NCBI GenBank assembly: GCA_964543275.1
Contig: CAZIWW010000001.1
Span: 36,003-86,096, forward strand
Direction: 5' to 3'
Length of the DNA stretch: 50,094 bases
DNA from: an uncultured Bdellovibrionales bacterium
GTDB lineage: Bacteria; Patescibacteriota; Minisyncoccia; Moranbacterales; UBA11712
Part shown: positions 4,186 through 50,094 of the stretch, piece after piece
Numbering within the stretch: the stretch's first letter is position 1
How the letters are laid out: each line of letters begins with the position of its first letter
The notes under the pieces: generated by a model
Databases searched by the model: none
Seen by the model: the letters and a program-made list of their open reading frames with translations, nothing else
Told to the model about the DNA's origin: nothing
Made by a program: the position numbers and the translations under genes

Positions 4186-5688
4186 GTGCTTAAGGGAATA
4201 GAAATCTCAAGTAAAATAAAAATCCTTATCATCAGCTCCGTGGCATTGGTTGTATTATTTATACTGTGCCCTTTTGAGCTAGGCGCGGTTTCTTCGGATG
4301 CTGGTCAGGGAGCTAAAGTAACAACGGCTCAAGCCCAGACGGCCGAAGAAGTTTCCGATGACTACGAGCTTTATCAGAAGTATCTTTTGTATAAAAAATA
4401 TAAGAAGAAGCGACTTTATAAAAAATACAAGAAATATAAAAAATACAAAAAAAAGTATAAATTTGATAGTAAGGCGGAGAGAAGACAGTATAAAGAATAC
4501 TACAAGCTTTATAAGCTCTACAAAAAAAATCCTGGTCGCTACAAGCGCTATGCCAGATATTACGAACAGTACAAAAAGTACCGCGGGTATAAACATAAGT
4601 ACAAGCCTTACCGAAAATACAAAAAGTACGGTAAGTATAGAAAGTATAACAAGGCTTCTTATAATAAGTATAAAAAATACGGATCAAAAGCTTATAAAGA
4701 TGGCTACAGCCGATACTTGAATGCCCAGGGAAAACAGACAACGGGGATAGTTAACTTGGGCGAGGCTGATTTAGGTGGTGGATTGCTTGGCCCGAACATC
4801 TCGGTTGGCATTCAGAGCTATACTAAAAATGATTTGAGGAACAGCCCTTTTAAGATCAGCGCCAACAAAGACTATAACATCAGAGACAAGAACGGGAATA
4901 TAATCGCTTCGGTTTCTGCGTCTGCTCGGACTAAGGTTAAATACGCTTCGGGCGGCAATCTGAAGATATATGGATCAATAACAGAGAGGACTGTAGCTGC
5001 GGAGGTCAGGTTTGACGCCACCGACGGCAATAACGATGATTTGATTTTTGATGTAAATAAGCCTGGCTCAAGTTACGATCGTTACCGCGGTAAAATAAAA
5101 CTTCGCTTTTACGACAGCTCTAAATCCAACTGCGATCGCATTTGGGTTATCAACACTCTGCCGCTGGAGCATTATGTCTGGGGAATGGGGGAGATTAGCG
5201 GGACGGGACCAATGGCTCATAATCGGGTGATGACCACCAGCTACAGGACTTACGGTTATTGGAAAATTAAATTCAGCACTAAGTACGCCGCCCAGGGTTT
5301 TAAAGTCGACGCCACATCTGGCAACCAGATTTATTATGGCTATGATTACGAAATAGCGCACCCCAGAATTAGGTCAGCCGCTGAAGATACTCGCGGAAAA
5401 ATTGTAATGTATCACGGTAAAATAGCTATTACTCCTTATAGTTCTTGGACCGACGGGCGGACCCGCAGTTGGAAAGAGCGCTGGGGGTCGAGTAATTATC
5501 CTTGGTGCAAGTCTGTTCCTGACCCATACGGCAAACATCCCTCCAAAAGTACTTCTCAATTGGTGCGAGAAGGAAATCATATGGTGGGTTTAAGCGCCCA
5601 CGGCTCGCTCGACCGAGGCGACCATTGGGATTGGGAAAGGATTTTAAAATATTATTACAGCGGGATAGATATTGTTGGGGTGTATTAA
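4186..5688 (+). CDS. SpoIID/LytB-domain protein with an N-terminal anchor and a Lys/Tyr-rich low-complexity segment
   Basis: GTG start and a hydrophobic N-terminus. K/Y/R-rich stretch of about 120 aa. C-terminal motifs LPLEHYVWGMGE and TRGKIVMYHGKIAITPYSSWTDGRTRS resemble the SpoIID amidase-enhancer family. Confidence 0.6.
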   Translation: MLKGIEISSKIKILIISSVALVVLFILCPFELGAVSSDAGQGAKVTTAQAQTAEEVSDDYELYQKYLLYKKYKKKRLYKKYKKYKKYKKKYKFDSKAERRQYKEYYKLYKLYKKNPGRYKRYARYYEQYKKYRGYKHKYKPYRKYKKYGKYRKYNKASYNKYKKYGSKAYKDGYSRYLNAQGKQTTGIVNLGEADLGGGLLGPNISVGIQSYTKNDLRNSPFKISANKDYNIRDKNGNIIASVSASARTKVKYASGGNLKIYGSITERTVAAEVRFDATDGNNDDLIFDVNKPGSSYDRYRGKIKLRFYDSSKSNCDRIWVINTLPLEHYVWGMGEISGTGPMAHNRVMTTSYRTYGYWKIKFSTKYAAQGFKVDATSGNQIYYGYDYEIAHPRIRSAAEDTRGKIVMYHGKIAITPYSSWTDGRTRSWKERWGSSNYPWCKSVPDPYGKHPSKSTSQLVREGNHMVGLSAHGSLDRGDHWDWERILKYYYSGIDIVGVY

Positions 5689-7805: not shown

Positions 7806-10232
7806 ATGACAGAGGTTTTTAAAGAAATATTGAAAGCGGGCGCAAGACGTGGAGAGGAATTTGCTAAAAAGGCAAAGGGGCTTAGAAGTGGAAGTCAAGA
7901 GGAATTACCCAAAGCTACTGATGAGGAATTGGCGCAGGCGGAACTGTATGAACAGAAAAAAGAAACTGGACGGAAGAACGATCTTAAGGACGGTCTTGGA
8001 GAAACACATAAAGGAGACGGAGCTCAAGGGGTACTTGAGGGAGCGAGAGGCACTGCTACTGCTATGCTGGGGGAGAATCAGGAAGAACCGCGGCAAAAAT
8101 CTCTTACTGAAGCTGAAGCAAAAGGAGATGAAGATCCATCATTAGTTGAGAATGCTGAACTGGCTGGAGAGCATATCACTGAAGAGGTGCCGAAAAAAGA
8201 AGAGAAAGGTGAAGGGACCAAGAGTTTAGAGATGTTAAAAAAGGATCTTGAGGAAAAAAGGGCAAAGTACGCTCGTTTAGATACAGATATTTCGGGTAAG
8301 TGGTCGAGGCTTAAGAGAGTGCTGGGCTTGAATATTAAAGAAGTGAAGAACAAAGATGTCGATGTTGAGAAAGCCAGACGGGAATATTATGAAGCGTTGG
8401 AAAAATATGCCGGCGCAAGAAAGGCTTCCTTGCCGGAAGGAGATAAGAAAGCGGCTGCGGAACTTTTAAAAGAAGTTCGTCTTGATGAGGCGCTTAATAT
8501 TTTTAATGCCAAAACGGACGAAAGGTTAAAGGCGAGAAAAGAAAGAGGCGATTGGCCAAGCAAGTTAATGGACGGATATATGAAAGCGGTTGAGAAGTGG
8601 CGGGGATACAATTGGAAAACAAAGCTTGCTCTTTCGGGGATTTTGTTAACTGCCGGGGCAGCCAGTGGTCTTTATGGAATTGCTTTTGGTTCCATAGGCG
8701 CTGGAGTTTTTTCAACATTTAAAATTTCCCAGAGGGCGTTAAGCGCCGGAGCAACTGGACTTGGGATAAAGAAGATGTGGGATGCGGCTTCCTTAAAACG
8801 AATGGAGAAAAAATCAGTGAAAGAAATCGAGGGAATGTTATCGAAAGATGATTGGTTAGACAGGTTTGATTCTAAATTAGATGAGAGCATAAAATCTGTT
8901 AATGAGAGGCTGGCAAAGATAGAAAAGAAGGATTTAACGAGGAAAAGAGTTGCGGTGTGGGCTGGTATTTTGTTTGGCGGCGGAGGAATGATTTTCGATA
9001 TTTATAAGGGCTGGTCCGGATCCGGATTGGGGAAAACGGCGGACGTGGTTTCCGGCAAGCCGTCCGGCGCCGGGGTGACCGATGTGCGTAAGCCGAGCGG
9101 GATTGGTCAACCCCCCGTTGAAAAAACTCCAGGTACTCATATAGGTACTCATATTGAGCCGCCCAAAGCGCCTCCGGCCGACGAAGTAATTAAGTCGCCG
9201 GCAGTTACTACAGAGGATATTATTAGCAAGCCGCCCGATAAATATGTTACAACTCCGATTCCAGCGGAGACAACTGAAAAGATGACGGAGTTTATGGGAG
9301 ACTCAACTGAAATTAAAAAAGGCGGAAGTATTTGGAAATCGGTGCGAAGGTTGTATATGAAGCATCCGGAAGAGTATGGATATGGTTCGGACGGAGAGCG
9401 AGTTAAAAGCTTGTTTAAATCGTTCAAGGAGCAGGGGATTTTGAAACGTCTGGGAATTCGAGGGATTGATAATTTCGAAGATTTAACCGATGAGCAGAAG
9501 ATTAAAATCTGGTCGGAGTGGAAGACAGCTAATTCTGTCAGGGATCTTTCCATTTCCAGCGGTGGGAGAATTAAAGATTTGGTCCACGCTGGAGATAAGA
9601 TTTTTCTTGATAAGGACGGGAAAATCACTTTTGATTTCGAGCGCGGTTCCGGCATAAGACCGGGCTATTTGTCCGGTCACGAAACTGGCGCGGGTAAGGG
9701 CGGCGGAGTCGCGGAAGTCGTCGGCGGCGGAGCAGGCGCGGAAGAATTTCGCGAAGGCGAGAAGCCGGCTTGGCTTGAGGAATATGATAAAAGAATAGGA
9801 GAAACGAGATTAAGAGAGCAGGCGGCGGAAGCTAGATTAGATAGAGCTGACGAGTATTTGCGGAAGACTAGTGATGATTTAGCGGCGGCTAGAGAAGCAG
9901 AAACAGCGGCTATTGACTACACTCGGACTCATGAATTGATGGATTATATCCAGCAAAAGCTTTCAGGAGTTGATATCGACTGGGGCGCTCGCGGATCGGC
10001 TATGAGAATGTATGACGAATTAAAACAAGGTTCGCTAATTAATTCTGATCAGCCTATGGCGCCGGATATGGGCAAGGAACAGTATTGGAAAACACTCCGG
10101 AGGTTAACTGACGATCTTGGCAAACCGCGAGGTGGCGAAACAGTCGAGGAGTGGGTAAAGAGAGGATTGGAGCGTAAAAAAATTTCTCCAGAAAGAGTAA
10201 TTAGCGTCCTTAAGAAAGTATCCAATGGGTAA
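7806..10232 (+). CDS. Hypothetical large membrane protein (no family recognised)
   Basis: 808-aa ORF starting 2 nt after the previous stop. E/K-rich N-terminal third, central hydrophobic segments (LALSGILLTAGAASGLYGIAFGSIGAGVF; VAVWAGILFGGGGMIF), Pro-rich linker, C-terminal globular part. Confidence 0.6.
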   Translation: MTEVFKEILKAGARRGEEFAKKAKGLRSGSQEELPKATDEELAQAELYEQKKETGRKNDLKDGLGETHKGDGAQGVLEGARGTATAMLGENQEEPRQKSLTEAEAKGDEDPSLVENAELAGEHITEEVPKKEEKGEGTKSLEMLKKDLEEKRAKYARLDTDISGKWSRLKRVLGLNIKEVKNKDVDVEKARREYYEALEKYAGARKASLPEGDKKAAAELLKEVRLDEALNIFNAKTDERLKARKERGDWPSKLMDGYMKAVEKWRGYNWKTKLALSGILLTAGAASGLYGIAFGSIGAGVFSTFKISQRALSAGATGLGIKKMWDAASLKRMEKKSVKEIEGMLSKDDWLDRFDSKLDESIKSVNERLAKIEKKDLTRKRVAVWAGILFGGGGMIFDIYKGWSGSGLGKTADVVSGKPSGAGVTDVRKPSGIGQPPVEKTPGTHIGTHIEPPKAPPADEVIKSPAVTTEDIISKPPDKYVTTPIPAETTEKMTEFMGDSTEIKKGGSIWKSVRRLYMKHPEEYGYGSDGERVKSLFKSFKEQGILKRLGIRGIDNFEDLTDEQKIKIWSEWKTANSVRDLSISSGGRIKDLVHAGDKIFLDKDGKITFDFERGSGIRPGYLSGHETGAGKGGGVAEVVGGGAGAEEFREGEKPAWLEEYDKRIGETRLREQAAEARLDRADEYLRKTSDDLAAAREAETAAIDYTRTHELMDYIQQKLSGVDIDWGARGSAMRMYDELKQGSLINSDQPMAPDMGKEQYWKTLRRLTDDLGKPRGGETVEEWVKRGLERKKISPERVISVLKKVSNG

Positions 10233-10269
10233 GCGGGATTAAGCATTAACAAATATTTATTTTAAACCA

Positions 10270-10593
10270 ATGACTCAAGACACCATTCTTAAACAAACAA
10301 TTATTGAAGAGTTGGGCTTGCGGGATCTTCCCCGAGAAAAAAAAGAAAAAATGCTGGTGAAAATGACCGAAGTGGTTTTGAAGAGAATTTATCTAGAAAC
10401 GGTGGAGAGCTTAAGCGACGCTGATCGAGAGGAGCTGGGCAAACTTTTGGACAAAAAAGCGGAACCGGAAAAGGTCGAAGGGTTTTTAAAGTCCAAATTT
10501 GAAGATTACGACGGGTTTGTGAAAAAAATTGTGGACGATTTTAAAAACGAGATGAAGGAATCGATGACGCAGCTCGAAAATTCAAAATCCTAA
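10270..10593 (+). CDS. Small helical protein, DUF5663-like (tentative)
   Basis: 107 aa. The pattern EELGLRDLPREKKEKML...LSDADREELGKLL recalls the DUF5663 family common in Parcubacteria. The last codons (LENSKS) lie in a repeat arm. Confidence 0.45.
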   Translation: MTQDTILKQTIIEELGLRDLPREKKEKMLVKMTEVVLKRIYLETVESLSDADREELGKLLDKKAEPEKVEGFLKSKFEDYDGFVKKIVDDFKNEMKESMTQLENSKS

Positions 10594-10687
10594 TATCGAA
10601 GTTTCTGCATGGCGGCAAACGGAAATTGCGGGTTTTGAATTTTGAAATTATTTTGTGTTTAGGGTTTAAGATTTTGGATTTAAAATT
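10575..10687. repeat. Hairpin element, AAATCC/AAAATTC family
   Basis: CGAAAATTCAAAATCC (10575-10590, spanning the stop codon) pairs with GGTTTTGAATTTTGAAATT (10631-10649). There is a further arm, AGGGTTTAAGATTTTGGATTT. Confidence 0.5.
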
Positions 10688-10693
10688 AAATTT

Positions 10694-11230
10694 ATGCCAC
10701 AAAGCAAATATCAGGAACCAATTGAGGGAGAAGATCTTGATTTAGAGAAAAAATTTAAAGATGCGCGTGTCCAAAAAGCCGGCGAGGGTTTATTTCCTAA
10801 GGAATCTGTTGGCGAGAAAACTGGGGAGGATGTTGAAGCTGGGAAGAAAGTTACTGAACTAGAAGTAAAGGGAAAGGAGCCGATTAGTCCGGAAAAGGGA
10901 GCTGAAGCGGAAGTTGGCGAGAAAAGGATTTCGGAAAAACTAGAGACGGCTCGCAGAGTTATCGGAGTTCGGCAGGCTGCTCCCAAGACAACCGTAGCCC
11001 AAGACGCCCAAGCCATTTCTCAAATTGCCGAGTATGAAAAGAAAATAGACAAGCTGATGGAGATCGCTACGCACAAGGGGCCGGAACACGCCGTTAAAGT
11101 AGCCCAACATTTAGACAAAAGCAAAATTTCCGCTCGAGCCGATAATTATACTATGGACGAGATTCATGACAAGATGGAGAACGATTTGCGAGAGCGACTG
11201 GTCAAGAAAGGATTGTTGAAGGAGCTCTAG
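10694..11230 (+). CDS. Hypothetical E/K-rich protein
   Basis: 178-aa ORF co-oriented with its neighbours. No motif recognised. Confidence 0.5.
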   Translation: MPQSKYQEPIEGEDLDLEKKFKDARVQKAGEGLFPKESVGEKTGEDVEAGKKVTELEVKGKEPISPEKGAEAEVGEKRISEKLETARRVIGVRQAAPKTTVAQDAQAISQIAEYEKKIDKLMEIATHKGPEHAVKVAQHLDKSKISARADNYTMDEIHDKMENDLRERLVKKGLLKEL

Positions 11231-11289
11231 GGAAAATCCCAATGTCAAAATCCCAATATCCAATAAAATTCCAAATTTCAAATCCCAAG
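11231..11289. repeat. AAATCCCAAT-family arm
   Basis: AAAATCCCAATGTCAAAATCCCAATATCCAATAAAATTCCAAATTTCAAATCCCAAG. Shares a 19-nt complement (CAAAATCCCAATATCCAAT) with the arm at 13167-13205. Confidence 0.55.
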
Positions 11290-11372
11290 ATGTGCGTGAA
11301 GTCTATTTTCCGTAATTTTATTTCTTCGCGGAAAGTACCGCAATACTTAAAATAAAAATTTTAAAATAAAAA

Positions 11373-12728
11373 ATGGCGAATAATACAAACACAAAACCGA
11401 ATCCAAAATTAAAGGATCCTAAAATAAAGGGGACTAAAATTCCCCAAGCTTCATCCAATTCCTCCAGGAAAGTCTTAATTGGCTGTCTGATTGCAGTGGC
11501 TGTTTTTTTGGCATTGGCTATAATTGGCGGTCTGGCCGTTGCCGGGTATTGGTATTACAAGTCTAAGAAGGAAAGCATATTTTCTGAATCTTCGCCGCCT
11601 CCGAGTTGGCAAATAGAGGATGCTAGCCAGGATCAGGAGCAAGAAGAGTCTTCACAGCAAAAACCAGAACAAAAGCCAAGGACAACTTACGAAAACAAGC
11701 AATTTGGTTTTAAGCTTAAGATGACTCCGACTTGGAAGGATTACAAAGCTGTTCAGAAAGATACCGATGGAGGTTTTGGGGCGGCTATAATTGATTTTTA
11801 TCTGCCGTCTTCCAAGGCTGATTACACTGACCTTCCGGGATATGTTGAACTTTTTACTATAAATGTTTACTACATTGAACGCTGGCCCGAGTACCAGGAC
11901 TTTTGCAAAGAAGCTATGTGCGCGGGAGAAGAAGTTGGGAGAAACAGTAAATATGTTTTTACTTACTCTCACATTAGCGGTTTCCCGCCGGACGATGTTT
12001 CGCAGCAGGCTATACTCGATATGGAAACTATCGCGAAGAGTATTGAAATTTTTGAGCCGAGCGGGAGCGGATCGAGTTCCGGCGCCGCGTTGTCCCAGCA
12101 AGGTATCGCCGGTCAGGCGGGAAAGCCGGCTTATAACTCTAATTACGTTTCCGGCGCCAATTACTACGCTAACTGTAAATATCGCTATTCTCTTTATTAT
12201 CCCTCTACTTGGTCAACCGAGGGAGCGACCAGCAATTCCGGACAGGTTTTCTTCGTGGGTCCCAACGCGAGAGTTAAGATCGAATCGCTTGGTCTTACCT
12301 CGGGCGAGTCTTTGGCGGCTTTTGCGGCCAGACGAACGAGTGTAATGGAAGGGAACAAAGTTTGGAGCGAGACGGTGGAATGGGACAGTAAGGGAACGTC
12401 AACAATCAGAAGTTACTTTACTCATCCCGATTCGCAGTCAATGCACTGGATTCAAGGCGGGAGAGGAATGGAGCTTATGGCTTTTGGCGACGGGTATAAT
12501 TCCCAATTTATTAATATCAAAAATCTGCTAGGTTCGCTGACGATTGATTTGGATTATATAGATACTTGCGATTCAAGCAGTTCTTCATCTAATAATCCTA
12601 CAAGTTCTGGGTTTAATTGTGATTCATGGATTCACCCCAACGGGGATATTGAGTATTGGTGGTATAGTCTATCGCAGGAAGAGCAGGATTGTTATGTTAA
12701 GAAATACGGCGATCCGGGGTTTCAATAA
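11373..12728 (+). CDS. Hypothetical N-terminally anchored extracytoplasmic protein
   Basis: 451 aa. TM (VLIGCLIAVAVFLALAIIGGLAVAGYWYY), an S/Q/E-rich linker, then Cys-containing globular regions. Confidence 0.6.
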   Translation: MANNTNTKPNPKLKDPKIKGTKIPQASSNSSRKVLIGCLIAVAVFLALAIIGGLAVAGYWYYKSKKESIFSESSPPPSWQIEDASQDQEQEESSQQKPEQKPRTTYENKQFGFKLKMTPTWKDYKAVQKDTDGGFGAAIIDFYLPSSKADYTDLPGYVELFTINVYYIERWPEYQDFCKEAMCAGEEVGRNSKYVFTYSHISGFPPDDVSQQAILDMETIAKSIEIFEPSGSGSSSGAALSQQGIAGQAGKPAYNSNYVSGANYYANCKYRYSLYYPSTWSTEGATSNSGQVFFVGPNARVKIESLGLTSGESLAAFAARRTSVMEGNKVWSETVEWDSKGTSTIRSYFTHPDSQSMHWIQGGRGMELMAFGDGYNSQFINIKNLLGSLTIDLDYIDTCDSSSSSSNNPTSSGFNCDSWIHPNGDIEYWWYSLSQEEQDCYVKKYGDPGFQ

Positions 12729-12730
12729 GC

Positions 12731-12790
12731 CTATAAATCCCAATGATAAAATCCCAATGTCAAATAAAAATCCAAATCCCAATGATAAAA
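12731..12790. repeat. Left inverted-repeat arm of four-helix-bundle gene cassette 1
   Basis: CTATAAATCCCAATGATAAAATCCCAATGTCAAATAAAAATCCAAATCCCAATGATAAA. Complementary to 13167-13205. Also encodes the N-terminus MSNKNPNPNDKK. Confidence 0.65.
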
Positions 12791-13155
12791 AGTACGATCT
12801 TTTAGGGGGAACAGCTAAATTTGGCGAGGATGTTATTGATCTCGCGGGGACTTTAGGTAAGAATGAAATCAATCGGCCACTAATAAGCCAAGGGATAAGG
12901 TCTTCTACGAGCATTGGCGCTAATTACATGGAAGCTAATGCGGCTGGGTCACGGAAGGACTTCGAGTATAAAATAACTTTGTGTAAAAAAGAGGCTAAAG
13001 AAACGATGCGCTGGTCGCGGATGTTGGCTAGAGCTAATCCAGAAAAGAAAGATGAAATTAGAAAGCTCTGGAAAGAAGCTCAAGAGCTAGTTTTTATCTT
13101 CTCAGCTATTCTTAATAGTTCGAGGAAGAAAGAAAAGCAGAGAAAGGTAAAGTAG
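12757..13155 (+). CDS. Four-helix-bundle protein (23S rRNA intervening-sequence protein / Avd-like family)
   Basis: Start moved to ATG 12757. Motifs IRSSTSIGANYMEANAAGSRKDFEYKITLCKKEAKETMRW match the TIGR02436/PF05635-type pattern as recalled. Confidence 0.75.
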   Translation: MSNKNPNPNDKKYDLLGGTAKFGEDVIDLAGTLGKNEINRPLISQGIRSSTSIGANYMEANAAGSRKDFEYKITLCKKEAKETMRWSRMLARANPEKKDEIRKLWKEAQELVFIFSAILNSSRKKEKQRKVK

Positions 13156-13166
13156 ATATCAATTAA

Positions 13167-13205
13167 GATATTGGATTGGATATTGGGATTTTGGAATTGG
13201 GATTT
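13167..13205. repeat. Right inverted-repeat arm of four-helix-bundle gene cassette 1
   Basis: GATATTGGATTGGATATTGGGATTTTGGAATTGGGATTT. Its reverse complement matches ATAAATCCCAAT / AAAATCCCAAT in the left arm. Confidence 0.65.
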
Positions 13206-13211
13206 ATTACA

Positions 13212-15758
13212 ATGGATACTTGGAATCTTAATCTAATACTCTATCCGCTGGCTATTACGCTGGCTATAATATGTTTTGGCTCCGGAGCTTGGCTGGTGTT
13301 CCGCAGTTTTGTCATTTTCCGAGGGCAGATTACTCGGTCGCTTAATATGAATCTGGATGTGGTAAAGGTGAGTCGGCCGCTCAAACAAGAAGGTCAGGTA
13401 GGGGAGCAGGTCCAACCCAAATCGGAGAAGGAAATAATTTCAGTAATGGAGCATCTTCTGGCCAGTCTGGTGAATGTTAAAGAGAAGGCCGGTCTTTTGC
13501 GCCGGCTTATTTACGGCGACGCGGTGATTGCTCTAGAGATAGCCAACGCGGCTGACGACGACCAAATTACTTTTTATGTGGGAGCGCCGAAGAAATTTAT
13601 GGGACTTGTGGAAAAGCAAATACACAGCTTTTATCCAAAAGCTTCCATTGAAAGAGTGAAGGACTACAACATTTTTTCTCCGGGAAGCTTTACATCGGCT
13701 TCTCTTCTCAAGCTTAAGGAAAAATATTATCTTCCTATAAAAACTTACCAGTTCTTGGAGGCTGATCCGCTTAACAATATTACCAATGTGCTTGGGAAGT
13801 TTGACGAGAAAAAAGAAGGAGCGGCTATTCAACTGCTTATTAAACCGGCTGGAGGCAATTGGCGCGGCAAGGGAAGAGAAGTGGCTCACAAGATGCAGCA
13901 GGGTCGGAGATTAAGCGAAGTTAAGAGAGATACCTTTTTTAGAAATTTATTTGGTGGACTTTTTAAAACATTTACGGACGTTGGCAAAAAGGACGAACAT
14001 TCTAAAAAAGATCCTTTTAAGAACGAAAGGGAGCCAATTAGTCTTACTCCGGAGGAGCAGGAGGTGGTTAAAAAAATAGAAAGCAAAGTCGGCAAGTCGG
14101 GTTTTAAAGTCAATATCAGATTGGTGGCTTCGGCCTTGACACAAGAAAGGTCCGAAGTGATTTTGTCGGAGCTGGAGAACGCTTTCATTCAATACGAGAA
14201 TCCGGGGCTTAATAGTTTTCGAGTTGTCCGGGAAAATAAATTAAGGCCAAGAAATATTGCCTTTGATTTTATTTTCCGAAATTTTAAAGAAGAGCAAAGC
14301 TTTATTCTTTCCTCCGAGGAGGTAGCCAGCATTTTTCATTTCCCGATTTTCTCGACCGAGACTCCAAAAATAAACTGGCTTAAGGCACGGGCGGCTGCGC
14401 CTCCTTCCAATATTTCTAAAGAAGGAATTATCATTGGCTACAACAATTATCGGGGAGTAGAGACTGTTATTCGCCACGGCGATGACGATCGCCGACGCCA
14501 TTTCTATGTTGTTGGTCAAACTGGCACTGGTAAGTCGACTATGATGGAAGAAATGGTCAAGCAGGACATTAAAGCCGGCAAGGGAGTTTGCGTTATTGAT
14601 CCTCACGGGGAATTTATTGAGCATGTCATTGAATGTATTCCAAAGGGAAGAGCGGAGGACGTTATTTATTTTGATCCGGCTGATATGGAACGCCCTTTTG
14701 GGCTCAATATGCTGGAATACGACGAGCGAAAGCCGGAACAGAAAACTTTTGTTATAAATGAATTGATCAATATCTTTGACAAGCTTTACGATCTTCGTCA
14801 AACCGGGGGGCCGATGTTTGAACAGTATATGCGCAACGCGGCTTTGTTAGTAATGGAGCATCCGGAATCTGGCTCGACGCTGATGGAAATTCCTAAAGTT
14901 TTGGCTGACGAAGAGTTTCGTCGCATGAAACTTGAGAAATGCACCAATCCGGTGGTGAAAAATTTTTGGGAGAAAGAGGCCGAGAAAGCCGGAGGTGAAG
15001 CGGCGTTGGCCAATATGGTTCCATATATCACTTCTAAGCTGACTCAATTTATCTCCAACGATATGATGCGGCCCATTATTGCTCAACAGAAGACGACAAT
15101 CAATTTCCGCCAGGCTATGGATGATCAGCAGATTATTTTAGTCAATCTTTCCAAGGGCAAAATTGGCGAGATTAATAGTTATCTTTTGGGAATGATAGTC
15201 GTAGGCAAGATTTTAATTGCGGCCTTGTCTAGAGTGGAAATTCCCGAAGAAGAGCGCAAGGATTTCTATCTCTACATCGATGAATTTCAAAATGTGACTA
15301 CTGATTCCATCGCTCAAATCCTTTCGGAAGCCAGAAAATACCGGCTTGACTTAATTATCGCTCATCAGTTCATCGGGCAACTCAAAGAAGAAATTTCCAA
15401 AGCCGTATTCGGCAATGTGGGTTCAATGTGCTCTTTTAGAGTCGGAGCCGAAGACGCGGAGTTCTTGCAAAAGCAGTTTGAGCCTGTTTTCGACGCCAAC
15501 GATCTTATGAATGTGGACAACTATAATTGCTTCGTGAAACTTTTAATTAACAACGAAGCGGCCGCCCCGTTCAATATGAAGACTTATCCGCCGACCAAAG
15601 GCAATAAAGAAATCGCCGAAGCCATCAAAGAATTATCCAAACTCAAGTACGGCCGCAATCGCGAAGTGGTCAATGAAGAGATTATGAAACGTGCTAGTTA
15701 TGCTGTAACGCGAGTTCCTGCGGCGGATGCGTTTGATATGGGAGAAAAACCGCTATAG
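13212..15758 (+). CDS. Membrane-anchored TraD/TraG/VirD4-type (FtsK/HerA-like) P-loop ATPase
   Basis: Start moved to ATG 13212, because the track N-terminus is a translated repeat arm. N-terminal TM. Walker A VVGQTGTGKST, IDPHGEF, Walker B-like FYLYIDEFQN, RKYRLDLIIAHQFIGQL. Confidence 0.7.
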   Translation: MDTWNLNLILYPLAITLAIICFGSGAWLVFRSFVIFRGQITRSLNMNLDVVKVSRPLKQEGQVGEQVQPKSEKEIISVMEHLLASLVNVKEKAGLLRRLIYGDAVIALEIANAADDDQITFYVGAPKKFMGLVEKQIHSFYPKASIERVKDYNIFSPGSFTSASLLKLKEKYYLPIKTYQFLEADPLNNITNVLGKFDEKKEGAAIQLLIKPAGGNWRGKGREVAHKMQQGRRLSEVKRDTFFRNLFGGLFKTFTDVGKKDEHSKKDPFKNEREPISLTPEEQEVVKKIESKVGKSGFKVNIRLVASALTQERSEVILSELENAFIQYENPGLNSFRVVRENKLRPRNIAFDFIFRNFKEEQSFILSSEEVASIFHFPIFSTETPKINWLKARAAAPPSNISKEGIIIGYNNYRGVETVIRHGDDDRRRHFYVVGQTGTGKSTMMEEMVKQDIKAGKGVCVIDPHGEFIEHVIECIPKGRAEDVIYFDPADMERPFGLNMLEYDERKPEQKTFVINELINIFDKLYDLRQTGGPMFEQYMRNAALLVMEHPESGSTLMEIPKVLADEEFRRMKLEKCTNPVVKNFWEKEAEKAGGEAALANMVPYITSKLTQFISNDMMRPIIAQQKTTINFRQAMDDQQIILVNLSKGKIGEINSYLLGMIVVGKILIAALSRVEIPEEERKDFYLYIDEFQNVTTDSIAQILSEARKYRLDLIIAHQFIGQLKEEISKAVFGNVGSMCSFRVGAEDAEFLQKQFEPVFDANDLMNVDNYNCFVKLLINNEAAAPFNMKTYPPTKGNKEIAEAIKELSKLKYGRNREVVNEEIMKRASYAVTRVPAADAFDMGEKPL

Positions 15759-15762
15759 CGGT

Positions 15763-15891
15763 AAATTCAAAATTCTAAGCACTAAATCCTAAACAAATCC
15801 AAATATCAAAATCCGAATTTTCAAAACATTCTGTATTTTGTTATTTGAATTTTGATATTATTTAGGATTTGGAATTTAGAGCTTTGGATTT
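15763..15891. repeat. Hairpin element without an ORF, AAATCC family, arms of about 60 nt
   Basis: Left arm AAATTCAAAATTCTAAGCACTAAATCCTAAACAAATCCAAATATCAAAATCC... pairs with right arm ...GATATTATTTAGGATTTGGAATTTAGAGCTTTGGATTT. Short loop near 15828-15832. Confidence 0.6.
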
Positions 15892-15913
15892 ATTTAAGAG
15901 GGGAGGTGAAAGT

Positions 15914-16100
15914 ATGAATCGACAATCCGTGGGGCCAATTTGCCAAAGTTACGGGATGCCGATAATGAAAGACGAGGATTTTATGACCAATGCCGACGGC
16001 CGGCAGTAAAAACGAAGAGTATCGCTAGTCGCGGGAGTGGACAGAGTGCAGACAATTTTCCAAGAAGGCTCACGCATAGTTTAAGATGTTGCGCGAATTA
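15914..16100 (+). pseudogene. Decayed putative zinc-ribbon protein gene
   Basis: SD GGGAGGTGA precedes ATG 15914. Reads MNRQSVGPICQSYGMPIMKDEDFMTNADGRQ, then TAA. KNEEYR continues in frame, then TAG. Resembles the CQSCGMP...GTNADGSKSEEYCxYC family with a Cys lost and stop codons acquired. Confidence 0.4.
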
Positions 16101-16135
16101 AGCTAAGGCCGGTGTTTTTTAGACTCAAGGAACTT

Positions 16136-16600
16136 ATGGATTTTTGGGAAGTTATCGAAAAAAGAAGAAGTGTGCGAGAATTTGACAGAGTTAAAGGAGT
16201 GTCAGATGAAAATATTAAAAAAATTCTGTATGCAGCCAAGAGAGCTCCGTCAGCCGGAGGATTATATCCGACAGATTTTATAGTTGTGCGAGATAAGGAA
16301 ACAAAGAAGAAATTAACTCGAGCGGCGCTTAATCAAGAATTCATTGCTCAAGCGCCAGTGGTAATTGTAGTTGTAGCTGATACTGAAAAGTCTGCCTCGA
16401 GATACGGAGAGCGTGGAAGAAATCTTTACACTGTTCAGGATGCCGCCGCGGCCGCGGGAAATTTGTTGTTGGCTGTCACTGCTTTGGGGCTAGGCGCCTG
16501 CTGGGTAGGAGCGTTTGACGAGAATGAAGTGAAGAAGATTTTAAATCTTGATTTCGGAAAACGGCCGTTAACAATTATTCCTGTGGGGTGGGAGAAGTGA
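16136..16600 (+). CDS. Nitroreductase family protein
   Basis: MDFWEVIEKRRSVREF N-terminus and a SAGGL motif typical of NADH/FMN nitroreductases. Start moved to ATG 16136. Confidence 0.7.
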   Translation: MDFWEVIEKRRSVREFDRVKGVSDENIKKILYAAKRAPSAGGLYPTDFIVVRDKETKKKLTRAALNQEFIAQAPVVIVVVADTEKSASRYGERGRNLYTVQDAAAAAGNLLLAVTALGLGACWVGAFDENEVKKILNLDFGKRPLTIIPVGWEK

Positions 16601-27109: not shown

Positions 27110-27112
27110 ATG

Positions 27113-27246
27113 TAAACTCAAAATTCAAAACTCAAAACTCAAAACTTTGGAACTCGCTTCGCTTGCGATTGAACTTAGAAAGTTTCATGCGCGAAGCGCA
27201 TACCTTAGCTTTGAGGTTTGAACTTTCAGTTTTGAGCTTCCAAAAG
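27113..27246. repeat. Hairpin element, AAACTCAAAAC family, with a GC-rich core
   Basis: Left arm TAAACTCAAAATTCAAAACTCAAAACTCAAAACTTTGG pairs with right arm CCTTAGCTTTGAGGTTTGAACTTTCAGTTTTGAGCTTCCAAAAG. Core palindrome ATGCGC-GAA-GCGCAT at 27187-27201. Confidence 0.6.
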
Positions 27247-27969: not shown

Positions 27970-28090
27970 AAATGTCAAATTAAAAATTTAAAAGCTCAAA
28001 TGTCAAATCAAATCCAAAATTCGAAGATAAAAAATTTAGTCGTTTGAATTTTGGATTTAGTTTGGCGTTTGGATTTTGAAATTTGGATTT
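27970..28090. repeat. Hairpin element, AAATCCAAA family, between mraZ and rsmH
   Basis: ...CAAATCAAATCCAAAATTCGAAG pairs with CGTTTGAATTTTGGATTTAG...GGATTTTGAAATTTGGATTT. There is a 13-nt exact complement, AAATCCAAAATTC. Confidence 0.6.
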
Positions 28091-33916: not shown

Positions 33917-33952
33917 AAATTGCCACGTTTTTATTGCGGTCGCATAAAAAAT
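33917..33952 (+). repeat. Direct repeat copy 1 flanking the PaaX-like gene
   Basis: AAAATTGCCACGTTTTTATTGCGGTCGCATAAAAAAT. Contains TTGCCA, a 17-nt spacer and CATAAA. Confidence 0.5.
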
Positions 33953-34003
33953 AGTGTAATATTTTAGCAGAACTTAGAAAGGGATTGTAAGTTCTGGCAG
34001 ACT

Positions 34004-34579
34004 ATGAGAAGTAAAAAGGGAAAAGAGACAACTAGGATAATCCTTCAAAGTATAGCCTGGGCTGGGGTTATTGTTATCGCGTCCACATCTCCTTATTTTC
34101 TGCCGAAAATTATTCCCAAACTAATTAAATACTCTTTGCACAAGCTGAAAAGTCGAGAAAGAAAAAGAAATTTTTGCAATACCTTTTACTATTTAAGAAA
34201 AAGAGGACTGATTAAAGTGGATAGAAGAGGGAAACAGGTTTACATTTCTTTAACTAGAGAGGGGAAAAGAAAGGCCAAAAAATACCAAATCGATAATCTG
34301 AAAATTAAAAAACCCAAGAAGTGGGACAAAAAGTGGAGGATACTTATTTTTGATGTACAAGATACTCACCGGATGAAAAGGGAAGTATTGCGTGGAAAAT
34401 TGAAAGAGCTGGGACTGTATCAGCTGCAAAAAAGTGTTTGGGTTCATCCTTATAGTTTTCAATTAGAAATGAAGACATTAAGAAGTTTTCTCGGTCTCAA
34501 CCATGCAGAGATGAGAATTATTACAGCTAGTGACATTGAAGGCGATGAGGAGGTTAGATCGTTTTTTAATCTGCTTTAG
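34004..34579 (+). CDS. PaaX-like regulator: winged helix plus a Cas2-like ferredoxin-fold C-terminal domain (tentative)
   Basis: FYYLRKRGLIKVDRRGKQVYISLTREG (wHTH-like). KKWRILIFDVQDTHRMKREVLRGKLKELGLYQLQKSVWVHPY follows the PaaX_C / Cas2-like pattern. Confidence 0.5.
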   Translation: MRSKKGKETTRIILQSIAWAGVIVIASTSPYFLPKIIPKLIKYSLHKLKSRERKRNFCNTFYYLRKRGLIKVDRRGKQVYISLTREGKRKAKKYQIDNLKIKKPKKWDKKWRILIFDVQDTHRMKREVLRGKLKELGLYQLQKSVWVHPYSFQLEMKTLRSFLGLNHAEMRIITASDIEGDEEVRSFFNLL

Positions 34580-34606
34580 ATCGGGTATAGTAAGCAGTAA
34601 TAAAAT

Positions 34607-34645
34607 AAAAATTTGCATCATTTTTTATGCGGTCGCAATGAAAAT
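34607..34645 (+). repeat. Direct repeat copy 2 flanking the PaaX-like gene
   Basis: AAAAATTTGCATCATTTTTTATGCGGTCGCAATGAAAAT. About 80 percent identical by eye to 33917-33952. Shares the core TGCGGTCGCA. Confidence 0.5.
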
Positions 34646-34832
34646 GAGAGAATTATTTTGGGGTATTTTGGAGTTCTAGATTTTCTAGATATAATAGATT
34701 TATTAGATTTGGATTTATCTAGCGAGATGGCAGGCTGAACTGCACTTAAGTGCTTAAATGGACAGAGAATAATTTTTGCTGTATCTTAAAATGTGAATGC
34801 TTTATTGTTCAACAGTTTGATTTATTATTTTT

Positions 34833-34904
34833 GGCCCCTTCGTCTAGTGGTCAGGACATCAGGTTCTCATCCTGGAAACAGGGGTTCGATTCCCCTAGGG
34901 GCTA
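34833..34904 (+). tRNA. tRNA-Glu (anticodon CUC), no encoded CCA
   Basis: Folds by eye as a cloverleaf. Acceptor GGCCCCT/AGGGGCT, anticodon stem TCAGG/CCTGG with loop TTCTCAT, T arm AGGGG-TTCGATT-CCCCT. Confidence 0.85.
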
Positions 34905-34962
34905 CGGAAAATTAAAAGCACAACCTCTCTATTTAGTTTGAGCTAAATAAAAAAGTTGCGCT

Positions 34963-38297: not shown

Positions 38298-38298
38298 T

Positions 38299-38418
38299 CT
38301 CTACGAATTACTAAACAATTACAAAAATACGAAAACTTATAAACACCTATCCCCTAAAACTACAACTTATTTAATGTGCGATTTCGTATTTTTTGTTAAA
38401 TTTAGTAGTTCGTAGAAA
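38299..38418. repeat. Hairpin element (TACGAA variant) filling the porG-porD spacer
   Basis: CTCTACGAATTACTAAACAATTACAAAAATACGAAAAC pairs with GCGATTTCGTATTTTTTGTTAAATTTAGTAGTTCGTAGAAA. Loop of about 40 nt. Confidence 0.6.
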
Positions 38419-38426
38419 ATTGTACT

Positions 38427-38687
38427 ATGGATTGGCAAAACATCGAAAAAGGCGCTGTCATCAAGCACGATATCAAAAAGTCGCCTCGTACCGGCGACTG
38501 GCGATATATGAAACCCGAAGTTGATAAGAAGAAATGCATTGGCTGCGGGCAGTGCGTTTCTCATTGCCCGGAAGGCTGTATAACTTTAGGCAAAGATGGC
38601 AAGGCCGAGATTAATTATGATTTTTGCAAAGGCTGCGGAGTGTGCGCGCAGATTTGCCCGAGAAAAGCGATTAAGATGAGGAAGTAG
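38427..38687 (+). CDS. porD: Pyruvate:ferredoxin oxidoreductase, delta subunit (2x[4Fe-4S])
   Basis: CIGCGQCVSHCP and CKGCGVCAQICP cluster motifs; 86 aa. Confidence 0.8.
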   Translation: MDWQNIEKGAVIKHDIKKSPRTGDWRYMKPEVDKKKCIGCGQCVSHCPEGCITLGKDGKAEINYDFCKGCGVCAQICPRKAIKMRK

Positions 38688-38718
38688 TATCTAGTATATT
38701 GTATCTTGCATTTTGTAT
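38688..38718. repeat. Left inverted-repeat arm of four-helix-bundle gene cassette 2
   Basis: TTGTATCTTGCATTTTGTAT matches 19 of 20 positions of the reverse complement of 39091-39125. Confidence 0.65.
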
Positions 38719-39091
38719 GGTTACGGATAATAAGAAGATAAAATCATTTACCGATTTATATGCTTGGCAAGAAGCGCATAAATTAGTTTTAATGGTTTAT
38801 GCGGAAACTGAAAAATTTCCTAAAAGAGAAATTTTTGGTTTGACTGTCCAGATAAGACGGTCAGTTGTTTCTATTACATCTAATATCGCGGAAGGCTTTA
38901 ACAGAAATGCTTCTAAGGATAAATGTCAGTTTTATTCTATGGCGCACGGATCATTAACTGAATTGCGAAATCAGTTGCTAGCGACAAGAGATGTCGGGTA
39001 TTTAAGCCAAGCAATTTTTAATAAGCTTGCCGATCAAACGGTTGTTGTTGCTAAGTTGATTAATGGCTTGAGAAAAATAAGAAACAAATGA
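38717..39091 (+). CDS. Four-helix-bundle protein (23S rRNA IVS protein / Avd-like family) inserted in the por operon
   Basis: FTDLYAWQEAHKLVLMVYAETEKFPKREIFGLTVQIRRSVVSITSNIAEGFNR...GSLTELRNQL is the canonical family pattern. Confidence 0.8.
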   Translation: MVTDNKKIKSFTDLYAWQEAHKLVLMVYAETEKFPKREIFGLTVQIRRSVVSITSNIAEGFNRNASKDKCQFYSMAHGSLTELRNQLLATRDVGYLSQAIFNKLADQTVVVAKLINGLRKIRNK

Positions 39092-40269
39092 TACAAGATA
39101 CAAAATACAAGATACAAAATACGAAACAGCTCGCTCTCACCGGCGGGGCCGCTGCCGCCGAAGCTCTCAAGCAAATTAACCCGGATGTGATGCCGGTTTA
39201 TCCTATCACGCCACAGACGCCGATTATAGAAACTTTTGCTAAGATGGTGGCTGATGGCTTAGCCGATACGGAGATTATGGAAGTGGAATCGGAACACAGC
39301 GCTATGAGCGCGGCGGTTGGCGCGCAAGCGGCCGGAGCGCGGGCGATGACAGCCACTAGTTCCCAGGGACTAGCGCTAATGAGCGAGATTCTTCCCATTG
39401 CTTCTGGGTTGCGCTTGCCGATATTAATGTTTATTAGCGCGCGGGCTTTGAGCGCTCCCATAAATATCCATTGCGATCATCAGGATGTAATGGCTGTTCG
39501 AGATTTGGGATGGATTCAAATTTTTTCGGAGAGCGCACAGGAAGTTTACGACAACGCTTTTATAGCTCTTCGTCTGGCGGAAAAAACGCGTCTGCCGGCG
39601 ATGGTAATTATGGATGGTTTTACTACCTCGCATAGCGTAGAAAATTTAGAAGTTTTGGATACAGCCGCGGCCAGAAAATTTATCGGTGAATATAAGCCGG
39701 AAAATTATTTGCTGGACACGGATAACCCGGTAACTTTTGGGCCGGTGGGGCTTCCTAATTCGTATTTTGAATTCAAGCGAGCGCAGATCGAGGCAATGGA
39801 TGGGGTGATTGGGGAATATATAGAAATTTGCAGAAATTATGTTGAAGTTAGCGGACGCGATTATGATATATTCGAAGGCTATAACTTGGATGACGCTGAA
39901 AAAGTTATTGTTGTTGCCGGTTCCACAGCCGGGACAGCTAAAGTGGTTGTGGATGAATTGCGTGAGAGAGGAGAAAAAGTAGGACTACTTAAGATAAAAT
40001 TGTTTAGGCCGTTTCCGTACGGGGAAATAAAAAAAGCGCTTGAAGGCAAAAAACGTGTTGCCGTTTTGGATAGATCAGTTTCGTTTGGGAGTGTCGCCCC
40101 GCTTTATGGCGAGATAGTAAACTCGACTTTTCGGGATGATGTTCAGTCTTGCATTTTTGGATTAGGCGGACGTGAGATTTTTGGGGAGGATATTGCAAGG
40201 GTGTTTGAAGAAATGGGAGATAGAGGAGATCGGGAGCGCAAAGTGGTTAATTATATTGGATTAAAGTGA
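39088..40269 (+). CDS. porA: Pyruvate:ferredoxin oxidoreductase, alpha subunit
   Basis: LTGGAAAAEALKQINPDVMPVYPITPQTPIIE. The ATG overlaps the preceding stop (ATGA). Confidence 0.85.
   Translation: MIQDTKYKIQNTKQLALTGGAAAAEALKQINPDVMPVYPITPQTPIIETFAKMVADGLADTEIMEVESEHSAMSAAVGAQAAGARAMTATSSQGLALMSEILPIASGLRLPILMFISARALSAPINIHCDHQDVMAVRDLGWIQIFSESAQEVYDNAFIALRLAEKTRLPAMVIMDGFTTSHSVENLEVLDTAAARKFIGEYKPENYLLDTDNPVTFGPVGLPNSYFEFKRAQIEAMDGVIGEYIEICRNYVEVSGRDYDIFEGYNLDDAEKVIVVAGSTAGTAKVVVDELRERGEKVGLLKIKLFRPFPYGEIKKALEGKKRVAVLDRSVSFGSVAPLYGEIVNSTFRDDVQSCIFGLGGREIFGEDIARVFEEMGDRGDRERKVVNYIGLK
39091..39125. repeat. Right inverted-repeat arm of four-helix-bundle gene cassette 2
   Basis: ATACAAGATACAAAATACAAGATACAAAATACGAA. 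Also encodes the porA N-terminus (IQDTKYKIQNTK). Confidence 0.65.
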
Positions 40270-40272
40270 TTT

Positions 40273-40371
40273 CTCTACGAATTACGAATTTTGTACGAAT
40301 ATACGAATGAATGTATAAAAGCAATACATTCATAAAGTAATCTATTTGTGTGTGATTCGTAATTCGTAGAG
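40273..40371. repeat. TACGAAT-family nested hairpin filling the porA-porB spacer
   Basis: CTCTACGAATTACGAATTTTGTACGAATATACGAAT ... ATTCGTAATTCGTAGAG. Inner stem ATGAATGTAT / ATACATTCAT. Confidence 0.7.
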
Positions 40372-40384
40372 ATTAGGCATAACC

Positions 40385-42996: not shown

Positions 42997-43004
42997 AAAA
43001 TCTT

Positions 43005-43025
43005 TTTAGGGATCCGATCCCTAAA
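43005..43025. repeat. REP-like 21-nt palindrome, upstream copy (inverted orientation)
   Basis: TTTAGGGATCCGATCCCTAAA. Matches 20 of 21 positions of the reverse complement of the other two copies. Confidence 0.7.
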
Positions 43026-43042
43026 TTCCTCAAACTAATGAA

Positions 43043-43696: not shown

Positions 43697-43699
43697 CCT

Positions 43700-43720
43700 T
43701 TTAGGGGTCGGATCCCTAAA
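43700..43720. repeat. REP-like 21-nt palindrome, downstream copy
   Basis: TTTAGGGGTCGGATCCCTAAA, 4 nt after the transposase stop and 6 nt before the clpB ATG. Confidence 0.7.
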
Positions 43721-43725
43721 TTTTT

Positions 43726-49106: not shown

Positions 49107-49228
49107 AAATTTCTAATTAATCTAATTTCTAATTGATCTAATCAATACCTAAGCGCTAATGCCCAATTGCTGTTTGGTTATTGGGATTTATTTAGGTCAA
49201 TTAGATTAATTAGAGCAATTAGAAATTT
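49107..49228. repeat. Hairpin element, AATTAGAT family
   Basis: AAATTTCTAATTAATCTAATTTCTAATTGATCTAAT... pairs with ...AGGTCAATTAGATTAATTAGAGCAATTAGAAATTT. The loop holds CCCAAT/ATTGGG. The element abuts the recR stop. Confidence 0.65.
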
Positions 49229-49825: not shown

Positions 49826-50050
49826 CTCTACGAATTACGAATTTTATACGAATATACGAATATACGAATATACGAATATTCTAAGTCATAGGGGAATAGA
49901 GTATAGGCAGTAGGTCAAGTCGTAGAGTATAGGTTATAAGAACTTTATTCGAATCCCTATGGTCTACAACTTACAACCAGTCTTACAGCTTACATCTTAT
50001 TTCCCTACAACCTAGATTAGTATATTCGTAAGTGATTCGTAATTCGTAAA
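49826..50050. repeat. Composite nested palindromic element directly upstream of recR
   Basis: Outer TACGAAT arms (49826-49880 and 50018-50050). Four tandem ACGAATAT units. Inner ATAAG/GTAG arms versus CTACAAC/CTTACA arms (49881-50015). Confidence 0.7.
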
Positions 50051-50094
50051 GTTAGAAGCTTGCTTCTTCTCGTTTTTTCTCCAACGACGAGAAG

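Follow-up and report, generated by a model that had tools for sequence, protein, structure and literature searches.

The window analysed here, a stretch of 50,094 nucleotides (nt) from the contig CAZIWW010000001.1 of an uncultured bacterium (assembly GCA_964543275.1), has 41.5% G+C and belongs to a Patescibacteria (Moranbacteria-like) genome. In the spacer before a VirD4-like gene it carries a small gene for a four-helix-bundle (4HB) protein, which is enclosed by two long, mutually complementary arms. The build of this cassette is like that of those intervening sequences (IVSs) of rRNA that bear an open reading frame (ORF): inverted arrays of repeats of about 7 nt surround an ORF for a basic 4HB protein of the S23p/Avd family. 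The ORF-in-stem architecture is a property of this protein family, and a local accident is rejected, because another 4HB gene of the window has such arms too, as have 71 of 81 cassettes of one subfamily and 70 of 76 of another. On balance we favour the view that the element is an IVS-type hairpin cassette which resides in the spacer of an mRNA and is processed and bound in the way proposed below.

The affiliation of the focal ORF, which encodes 132 amino acid residues (aa), is clear. It is a member of the 23S rRNA IVS protein family by its matches to PF05635 (46.1 bits against a cutoff of 33.8; E 6.2e-12) and TIGR02436 (63.6 bits against 24; E 1.7e-17), and a homolog of known structure is PDB 2rld (E 2.7e-9). 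Its 5675 homologs stem for the most part from Patescibacteria. The protein is basic, with an isoelectric point of 9.85 (about 9.9 for both 4HB proteins of the window), and a search with domain models detected neither a nuclease nor a recombinase domain in it. No Shine-Dalgarno sequence is visible before the ORF.

The arms pair best at 12733-12765 and 13175-13207, where 33 nt are complementary to 85%; alternative registers reach position 12790. Folded as RNA, the segment 12725-13215 is closed by a stem of precisely these arms (minimum free energy -129.7 kcal/mol, z = -3.66, with none of 100 shuffled sequences as good), and the fold of the cassette as single-stranded DNA (ssDNA) has the identical closing stem (z = -3.95). 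The decamer AAATCCCAAT, counted with at most one mismatch, is expected 8.4 +/- 2.9 times and occurs 29 times in the window, a number that none of 100 shuffled sequences attains; all but one of its eight exact copies fall within 11234-13205. A first-pass annotation of this DNA had described a 132-aa gene bracketed by arms, the mutual complementarity of these arms, and a left arm that also encodes the N-terminus of the protein. The repeat scan and the family matches bear this out, the peptide MSNKNPNPNDKK indeed being encoded within the left arm, and the stable stem that the annotation wanted to see in a fold is predicted. The third arm, which it had noticed further upstream, is real and even longer than stated there: the segment 11234-11281 is a direct repeat of 12735-12782 (48 nt, 85% identical), and 11234-11284 is complementary to 13155-13205 (51 nt, 78%). 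The latter pair brackets an entire insertion, of which the cassette is only one part (see below).

The second 4HB gene of the window belongs to another subfamily, here called B, the focal one being A, and interrupts the operon for pyruvate:ferredoxin oxidoreductase. In a scan of the whole window for inverted repeats, its arms of 25-32 nt (GTATCTTGCATTTTGTAT and ATACAAAATACAAGATAC) turned out to be unrelated in sequence to those of the focal cassette. They pair as 38687-38711 with 39091-39115 (88%) and as 38694-38718 with 39098-39122 (25 nt, 92%). Again the arms form the closing stem of the predicted RNA fold (z = -4.53).

How common this architecture is was estimated from related loci, which are designated by L and a number where they have to be told apart. 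For subfamily A, one genome per species was scanned and 80 loci were kept of 583 relatives; the test set of 81 cassettes is composed of 79 related loci and the two cassettes of the window. For subfamily B, 80 metagenome loci were collected, 76 of them testable. The region around the start codon was aligned to the reverse complement of the region 3' of the stop codon, and arms were called at an alignment score of at least 14. In subfamily A, the median score of cognate arms is 18, compared to 8.6 with a shuffled right arm, 8.0 with a decoy 400 nt downstream and 9.5 in direct orientation; 71 of the 81 cassettes reach the threshold and 74 exceed all their own shuffles. The figures for subfamily B are similar: a median of 19.25 versus 8.3 for shuffles, with 70 of 76 cassettes at or above 14 and 74 above all their own shuffles. 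In subfamily A the left arm is translated into a conserved N-terminal peptide, M[ST]N[QK]xQNPNDKKYDL.

Some of these loci deserve mention in their own right. The subfamily-A cassettes L002, L030 and L052 have premature stops or frameshifts and retain their arms; they are decaying. Two or three cassettes on the same strand are found within a few kb at several loci, and both subfamilies contribute to the three 4HB genes that share one strand within 2.5-4.3 kb in L135 (1590-4030) and L044 (4001-8331); the density of cassettes is thus very high in some genomes. Finally, CAAAT-type subfamily-A cassettes occur on long contigs (L006, L011, L019, L022, L028 and L052-L055) which, according to their record titles only, belong to Chloroflexi/Dehalococcoidia, Zixibacteria, delta-proteobacteria and Ca. 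Magnetocorallium. Because of these titles, the class of elements reaches beyond Patescibacteria, if the bin labels are taken as given.

The terminal inverted repeats also bound a mobile unit. The flanking genes of subfamily A are common to no more than a handful of the 80 loci, which amounts to about 70 unrelated contexts. In three pairs of loci (L011/L022, L118/L135 and L128/L148) the cassettes are 84-89% identical and the flanks unrelated, and the homology begins and stops exactly at the outer ends of the arms. A target-site duplication was seen neither at the junctions of these three pairs nor in the comparison of the focal site with empty ones, and no transposase or reverse transcriptase was found in association with the cassettes. 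Typically, a cassette fills the spacer from shortly past one stop codon to shortly before the next start codon. It is preferentially oriented like the upstream gene: 74 of 83 cases in subfamily A (p = 6e-5) and 70 of 75 in subfamily B (p = 0.02), the baselines, taken from adjacent gene pairs in general, being 0.71 and 0.85, respectively.

The focal site itself is polymorphic among related Moranbacteria. It was compared in six contigs (L081-L086) with orthologs of the VirD4-like gene of 79-82% identity. Four of them are empty: the distance from stop to start is 14 nt in L081, 23 nt in L083 and 47 nt in L085, while in L082 the stop codon shares 1 nt with the start codon. In L086 the spacer of 161 nt contains a heptamer hairpin without an ORF (z = -2.85), and L084 has a 4HB gene of subfamily B with GAATTGG-type arms, without the 451-aa gene that accompanies the focal cassette. 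Judged from these alleles, the cassette, a 451-aa passenger and a duplicated left arm appear to have been inserted exactly from stop to start before the VirD4-like gene. The passenger has no match in Pfam, and tblastn detected no homolog of it at the six orthologous VirD4 loci nor in any of the 166 loci fetched. Its N-terminus is of low complexity (MANNTNTKPNPKLKDPK) and is partly complementary to a hairpin at 10634-10660. A nested partial duplication like that of the window's left arm was also observed in L011, where 77 nt are inserted past the 4HB stop codon, ahead of the right arm (about 4375-4455); the insert comprises a second copy of the left arm and a truncated ORF start (MPNQIQNPNDKEK*).

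Because the same package of stem and gene is found at about 140 further loci and is missing from this site in relatives, it behaves, as far as sequence can show, as a movable unit, and an ordinary ancestral gene is rejected. The first-pass annotation had proposed just this, an ORF in a stem within a protein-coding operon; the arrangement is present here and recurs across two subfamilies. To its idea of comparing genomes for presence and absence, the four empty sites and the two with other occupants give the answer; as to its suggestion to survey the 4HB genes for flanking repeats, the second gene is armed as well. None of the three arguments to the contrary that it had named, namely an unstable stem, a lack of arms in the other members of the family and a lack of insertion polymorphism, applies.

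The arms are built from heptamers. On the sense strand of the left arm, the unit of subfamily A is CAAATNN-like, e.g., CAAATGTCAAATGACAAAATCCAAAT, of which AAATCCCAAT in the window is a variant; in subfamily B it is G[TA]ATNNN. The arms resemble themselves most at lags of 7 and 14; the autocorrelation at lag 7 is 0.59 for subfamily A and 0.75 for B, as compared to about 0.2-0.3 at other lags. Where the heptamer is variable, 29-38% of the positions are mismatched between the arms, but only 1-9% at most core phases (up to 17% in A). Since the mismatches cluster in this way, the stem is composed of short perfect helices with periodic interruptions. The start codon lies within the left arm in 42 of 71 subfamily-A and 44 of 70 subfamily-B cassettes, and the stop codon within the right arm in 42 of 70 subfamily-B cassettes.

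The two arms of a cassette evidently belong together. In subfamily A, cognate arms score 18 in the median and non-cognate ones 12.75 (Wilcoxon p = 6e-11), and at 69 of 80 loci the cognate arms score higher than non-cognate pairings do on average. The same is seen in nine orthologous cassettes between porD and porA, with 19.4 for cognate and 12.6 for non-cognate arms (permutation p = 1e-4). In this set the arms vary by genome in the variable triplets (CTT/TTT, AGA/TTA, AAA/TAT and TTG types), the best or near-best partner of each left arm is its own right arm, and in L098 an odd unit, GTAGAAT, stands at corresponding positions of the two arms. The number of units can change: L095 has about 14 tandem GTATAGA in the left arm of its porD/porA cassette (about 405-525) and only 4-5 units in the right one, an example of slippage, and the arms of L129 and L133 differ by one unit. 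Six orthologous pairs of subfamily A, inspected by eye for compensatory changes, had too few differences. Because cognate arms outpair non-cognate ones, even in orthologous cassettes, their complementarity is maintained, be it through selection or through homogenisation between the arms.

Cassettes can also be old. The order in the oxidoreductase operon of the window is porG, hairpin, porD, 4HB cassette, porA, hairpin, porB; every junction contains a hairpin element. Besides the window, nine fetched loci have a 4HB cassette at the porD/porA junction. In the window, the start codon of PorA and its first 12 residues (MIQDTKYKIQNT) are derived from the right arm of the cassette, and the PorA ATG overlaps the TGA of the 4HB gene. 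Across genomes, the 4HB proteins at this junction are 64-71% identical and the PorA proteins 57-74%. Because the two ranges match, the ORF is under purifying selection comparable to that of a core enzyme, and a cassette can be inherited stably. One pair of loci stands out, L098 and L110: their cassettes are 97.7% identical, the flanking por genes about 70-90%, and identity falls with the distance from the cassette. The pattern, known from this single pair, would fit a cassette that was transferred from one lineage to another, or converted, not long ago, the flanks being co-converted.

Hairpins without any ORF are frequent in the window. Heptamer repeats or hairpins were found in about 12 of the 36 spacers of at least 40 nt, an approximate census, as the heuristic picking of ORFs replaced the focal gene by an antisense ORF. 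Three of the hairpins (38298-38420, 40272-40372 and 49826-50051) begin with (T)CTCTACGAATTAC followed by TACGAAT-type heptamers and look like copies of one repeat family. The positions of all these features are compiled in Table 1.

Table 1. Cassettes, hairpins and neighbouring genes, with positions as counted in the window.
Feature	Position	Strand	Basis or remark
Upstream operon gene, 178 aa	10694-11230	+	tblastn homologs directly 5' of VirD4 in L081-L086
Whole insertion relative to orthologous loci, 1981 nt: outer arm copy, 451-aa gene and 4HB cassette	11231-13211	+	
Outer duplicated copy of left arm, without gene of its own	11234-11289	+	repeat comparison
Membrane-anchored 451-aa protein, between two left-arm copies	11373-12728	+	N-terminal membrane anchor
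Focal left arm, AAATCCC/CAAT-type repeats; contains the 4HB start codon, encodes MSNKNPNPNDKK	12733-12790	+	
4HB gene, subfamily A, 132 aa	12757-13155	+	PF05635 and TIGR02436 above curated cutoffs
Focal right arm, ATTGGGATTT-type; ends 5 nt before VirD4-like start codon	13155-13207	+	
VirD4/TraD-like coupling ATPase of a Patescibacteria type IV secretion-like cluster	13212-15758	+	PF10412, PF02534, PF01935
Left arm of second cassette, GTATNNN heptamers; begins at porD stop codon	38687-38718	+	
Second 4HB gene, subfamily B, 123 aa, between porD and porA	38720-39091	+	TIGR02436 E 6.1e-31, 106.9 bits
Right arm of second cassette, NNNATAC heptamers	39091-39122	+	translated as N-terminal extension of PorA, MIQDTKYKIQNT
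ORF-less hairpin, spacer from DUF5663 gene to 178-aa gene	10578-10649	+	same motif type
ORF-less heptamer hairpin directly 3' of VirD4-like gene	15762-15899	+	49-nt arms, 73%; fold -38.6 kcal/mol
ORF-less heptamer hairpin	27111-27242		
ORF-less CAAAT-type hairpin, mraZ to next gene	27984-28084	+	42-nt arms, 79% complementary
ORF-less hairpin, porG to porD, terminus TCTCTACGAATTAC	38298-38420	+	fold
ORF-less hairpin, porA to porB, terminus TCTCTACGAATTAC	40272-40372	+	45-nt arms; intergenic fold z = -7.6
ORF-less heptamer hairpin	49107-49228		
ORF-less heptamer hairpin, 148-nt loop	49826-50051		

A few other features of the window may be added. Orthologs of the VirD4-like protein in Moranbacteria are 75-83% identical to it. 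In the region 10200-16200, scans for promoters and terminators gave counts no higher than in shuffled sequence, with no promoter within the cassette, and Rfam matches at E <= 1 were at chance level only; at gathering thresholds, tRNA is the sole Rfam match in the window. About 30 kb from the focal cassette lies a gene for an IS200-like/REP-associated Y1 transposase of 217 aa (43043-43696). It is accompanied by palindromes of the form TTTAGGG(A/G)TC(C/G)GATCCCTAAA at 43005, 43219 and 43700 (region 43004-43723), and this looks like a REP-associated tyrosine transposase (RAYT) with its repetitive extragenic palindromic (REP) sequences in a Patescibacteria genome. The palindromes that flank the Y1 gene (TTTAGGGATCCGATCCCTAAA) differ from the cassette arms. 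An ORF of 191 aa with a PaaX central Cas2-like domain (34004-34579) is likewise placed within inverted repeats (49 nt, 76% complementary, 33918-34654). These repeats are of non-heptamer sequence, and a tRNA-Glu gene (34833-34905) is located just downstream.

The closest counterparts of the cassette are the IVSs of rRNA. That of Coxiella burnetii forms a 28-bp stem from its terminal inverted repeats, which is cut by RNase III, and has an S23p ORF in the loop; its Shine-Dalgarno sequence is poor, and tandem GACAGAT heptamers, the copy number of which varies between strains, precede the ATG (PMC4990558). The rRNA elements of Coxiella and Leptospira (PMC4990558) and the cassette share the protein family in the loop, the terminal inverted repeats with a stem of about 28-50 bp enclosing the ORF, the lack of a convincing Shine-Dalgarno sequence and the coexistence of short ORF-less with ORF-bearing forms. 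A long enclosing stem of complementary termini is thus present, and so are the Coxiella-like heptamers of variable copy number in the 5' arm beside the ORF start, which are no formal criterion of an IVS. The differences are equally clear. An rRNA IVS extends the tip of helix 25 or 45 in a 23S (or 16S) rRNA gene, whereas the cassette of the window does not lie in an rRNA gene but in the spacer of an mRNA operon; no rRNA is found in the window, nor at 16 related loci whose non-coding flanks are larger. Unlike those of rRNA IVSs, the arms in the window hold the start codon of the ORF, the N-terminal peptide of subfamily A and, in the second cassette, the start of the next gene. The Coxiella ORF is decaying, while the ORF of the cassettes is under purifying selection. 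Excision by RNase III has been demonstrated for rRNA elements only (PMC4990558). Insertions in rRNA of bacteria of the Candidate Phyla Radiation (CPR) encode the same family of proteins (PMC11270868). Full-text searches of open-access papers yielded no account of 4HB genes with flanking inverted repeats outside rRNA, nor of heptamer arrays as a general feature of the family, although an earlier description may exist.

Another relative is Avd, the accessory protein of diversity-generating retroelements (DGRs), which is included in PF05635 (PMC10053308). It is a homologous basic 4HB protein and provides a precedent for the recognition of an imperfect stem: in the Avd pentamer all five protomers bind an 11-bp RNA stem-loop via flipped-out bases (bioRxiv 10.1101/2023.10.23.563531). 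Unlike in a DGR, the stems of the window enclose the gene itself and are periodic and of much greater length, and a reverse transcriptase as well as template and variable repeats are missing.

Inverted-repeat elements between co-transcribed genes are known from other bacteria. The Correia elements of Neisseria, the enterobacterial repetitive intergenic consensus (ERIC) sequences and the REP sequences or bacterial interspersed mosaic elements (BIMEs) fold in the mRNA and are polymorphic for presence and absence between strains; Correia elements are cut by RNase III. All these are non-coding and have terminal repeats of unique sequence, and Correia elements create a TA target duplication. The cassettes differ by the conserved protein gene in the loop, the heptamer arrays and the lack of any target duplication seen. 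With the IS200/IS605 insertion sequences and the REP/RAYT systems they share hairpin-forming ends, the absence of target-site duplication and the small size. Unlike those, they have no transposase, and their arms pair across the whole element instead of forming separate subterminal hairpins; neither an adjacent Y1 transposase nor subterminal hairpins are present. Nor do they show the target duplication and the transposase of a classical insertion sequence or miniature inverted-repeat transposable element (MITE).

From all this, the following sequence of events may be envisaged. The cassette probably has no promoter of its own and would be transcribed together with the operon. In the transcript the arms would pair into a long stem with periodic mismatches, which encloses the ORF and occludes the start codon. 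Once paired, the arms would place the stop codon of the upstream gene and the start codon of the downstream gene only a few nt from the base of the stem and thereby mimic the empty allele, in which the two abut or overlap. By analogy with the rRNA IVSs, the stem probably is a substrate of RNase III. The basic 4HB protein, if it resembles its homolog Avd, probably binds the stem of its own cassette. The ORF-less heptamer hairpins probably are non-coding relatives of the same class, as the short ORF-less IVSs are in rRNA.

This proposal of a processed and protein-bound IVS-type cassette does not go without objections. Cleavage, co-transcription and the binding of the protein to the stem are matters of inference. 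Part of the complementarity of the arms is due to the fact that both are arrays of the same motif (non-cognate arms reach a median of 12.75, shuffles about 8.5), and the fold of the whole cassette in L084 is no better than that of shuffled sequences (z = -0.88). The stem buries the start codon, yet the ORF is under purifying selection; the stem must somehow be opened or cut. Ancient stable cassettes such as that between porD and porA are as compatible with domestication of the element as with its mobility. Mismatches compatible with G-U pairing on the sense strand are not in excess (61 versus 76 in subfamily A, 50 versus 80 in B). Because this signal is missing and ssDNA folds as well as RNA, selection for pairing at the RNA level is not distinguished from selection at the DNA level.

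The arms might, then, act on DNA only: the cassette would be a transposable element with hairpins or terminal inverted repeats, the ORF-less hairpins its MITE-like derivatives, and the RNA stem a by-product. This explanation is compatible with an IVS-type cassette, and we grant it a minor but respectable chance. Homology that is bounded exactly by the arm ends in unrelated contexts, the polymorphism of the focal site, the equality of the ssDNA and RNA folds, the missing G-U signal, the slippage of heptamers (about 14 GTATAGA in L095, one unit in L129/L133) and the terminus TCTCTACGAATTAC common to three ORF-less hairpins all speak for it. The mover would have to be supplied in trans, e.g., a Y1/HUH single-strand transposase that works on the folded-back arms, or a recombinase for which the heptamer arrays are iterated binding sites, and the window indeed contains a Y1 gene of the IS200-like/RAYT-like type. 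This gene, however, is 30 kb away and has its own, different palindromes, no transposase is present in or beside the cassettes, and the three pairs of copies in unrelated flanks lack a target-site duplication. Moreover, the co-orientation, the fit from stop to start and the codons of the ORF and of the next gene in the arms point to a constraint at the level of the transcript, and the counterparts in rRNA are demonstrably processed as RNA (PMC4990558). Somewhat less probable still is that the hairpins are owned by the host and serve as punctuation of its operons, i.e., for processing, stability or translational coupling; the 4HB protein would then be a hairpin-binding regulator of the host, and the observed pattern would reflect gain and loss of genes. 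That about 12 of 36 spacers have heptamers or hairpins, including all por junctions, that the porD/porA cassette is stably inherited with an ORF conserved like PorA, and that the co-evolution of the arms implies selection or homogenisation would suit such a role. It is hard to reconcile with the spread of one subfamily over about 70 unrelated contexts at 80 loci, with near-identical units in unrelated flanks, with the occupation of a single site in close relatives by two subfamilies and an ORF-less hairpin, with the pseudogenised copies L002, L030 and L052, and with a family that plainly is an insertion within rRNA genes.

The remaining explanations can be dealt with briefly. DGRs are common in CPR bacteria, and the focal gene might be an avd gene of a DGR or its remnant, the repeats being degenerate template and variable repeats. 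Avd belongs to PF05635 (PMC10053308), and the second 4HB protein is a weak match to the Avd equivalog NF033474 (24 bits, E 3.4e-5); the cutoff of this model is 80 bits, and the focal gene does not match it at all. No reverse transcriptase domain was detected in any ORF examined within about 8 kb of the focal gene, and long direct repeats of the template/variable type were not found near it, just the heptamer arms. By the lack of both, a DGR is effectively refuted at the focal locus, and we consider it hardly credible. Chance complementarity of AT-rich intergenic sequence of low complexity is practically negligible. The arms, it is true, are of low complexity, and non-cognate arrays of the same motif pair better than shuffles, but none of 100 shuffles reaches the motif count, the folds have z = -3.7 to -4.5, 148 of 157 cassettes are above all their own shuffles and cognate arms beat non-cognate ones; the controls with shuffled and with non-cognate arms refute it.

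What IVSs are and why some of them have a conserved 4HB ORF has been asked ever since their discovery in rRNA, and thousands of members of the family are annotated merely as 'four helix bundle protein'. If the stem plus ORF is the real unit, the question is freed from rRNA, and hundreds of independent insertions become usable; they offer occupied and empty alleles, variation in number and sequence of the heptamers, and ORF-less counterparts. We tentatively go one step further, although here the odds are rather against us: the 4HB hairpin cassettes could represent a large unrecognised class of mobile elements in Patescibacteria and several other phyla that encode a protein binding their own stem, the rRNA IVSs being a minority and the ORF-less hairpins non-autonomous members. 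If true, such cassettes colonise any transcribed spacer or helix tip that tolerates a closed stem, and the 30-year-old S23p/IVS protein gains a function, the recognition of the stem for mobility, maintenance or the control of RNase III cleavage. For annotation, N-termini of low complexity (SNQIQNPNDKK, MIQDTKYKIQNT) are to be taken as translated stem arms, and in the operons of CPR bacteria long hairpins make up many of the spacers. The Avd protein of DGRs, finally, may descend from a stem-binding protein of such elements, or may have given rise to it.

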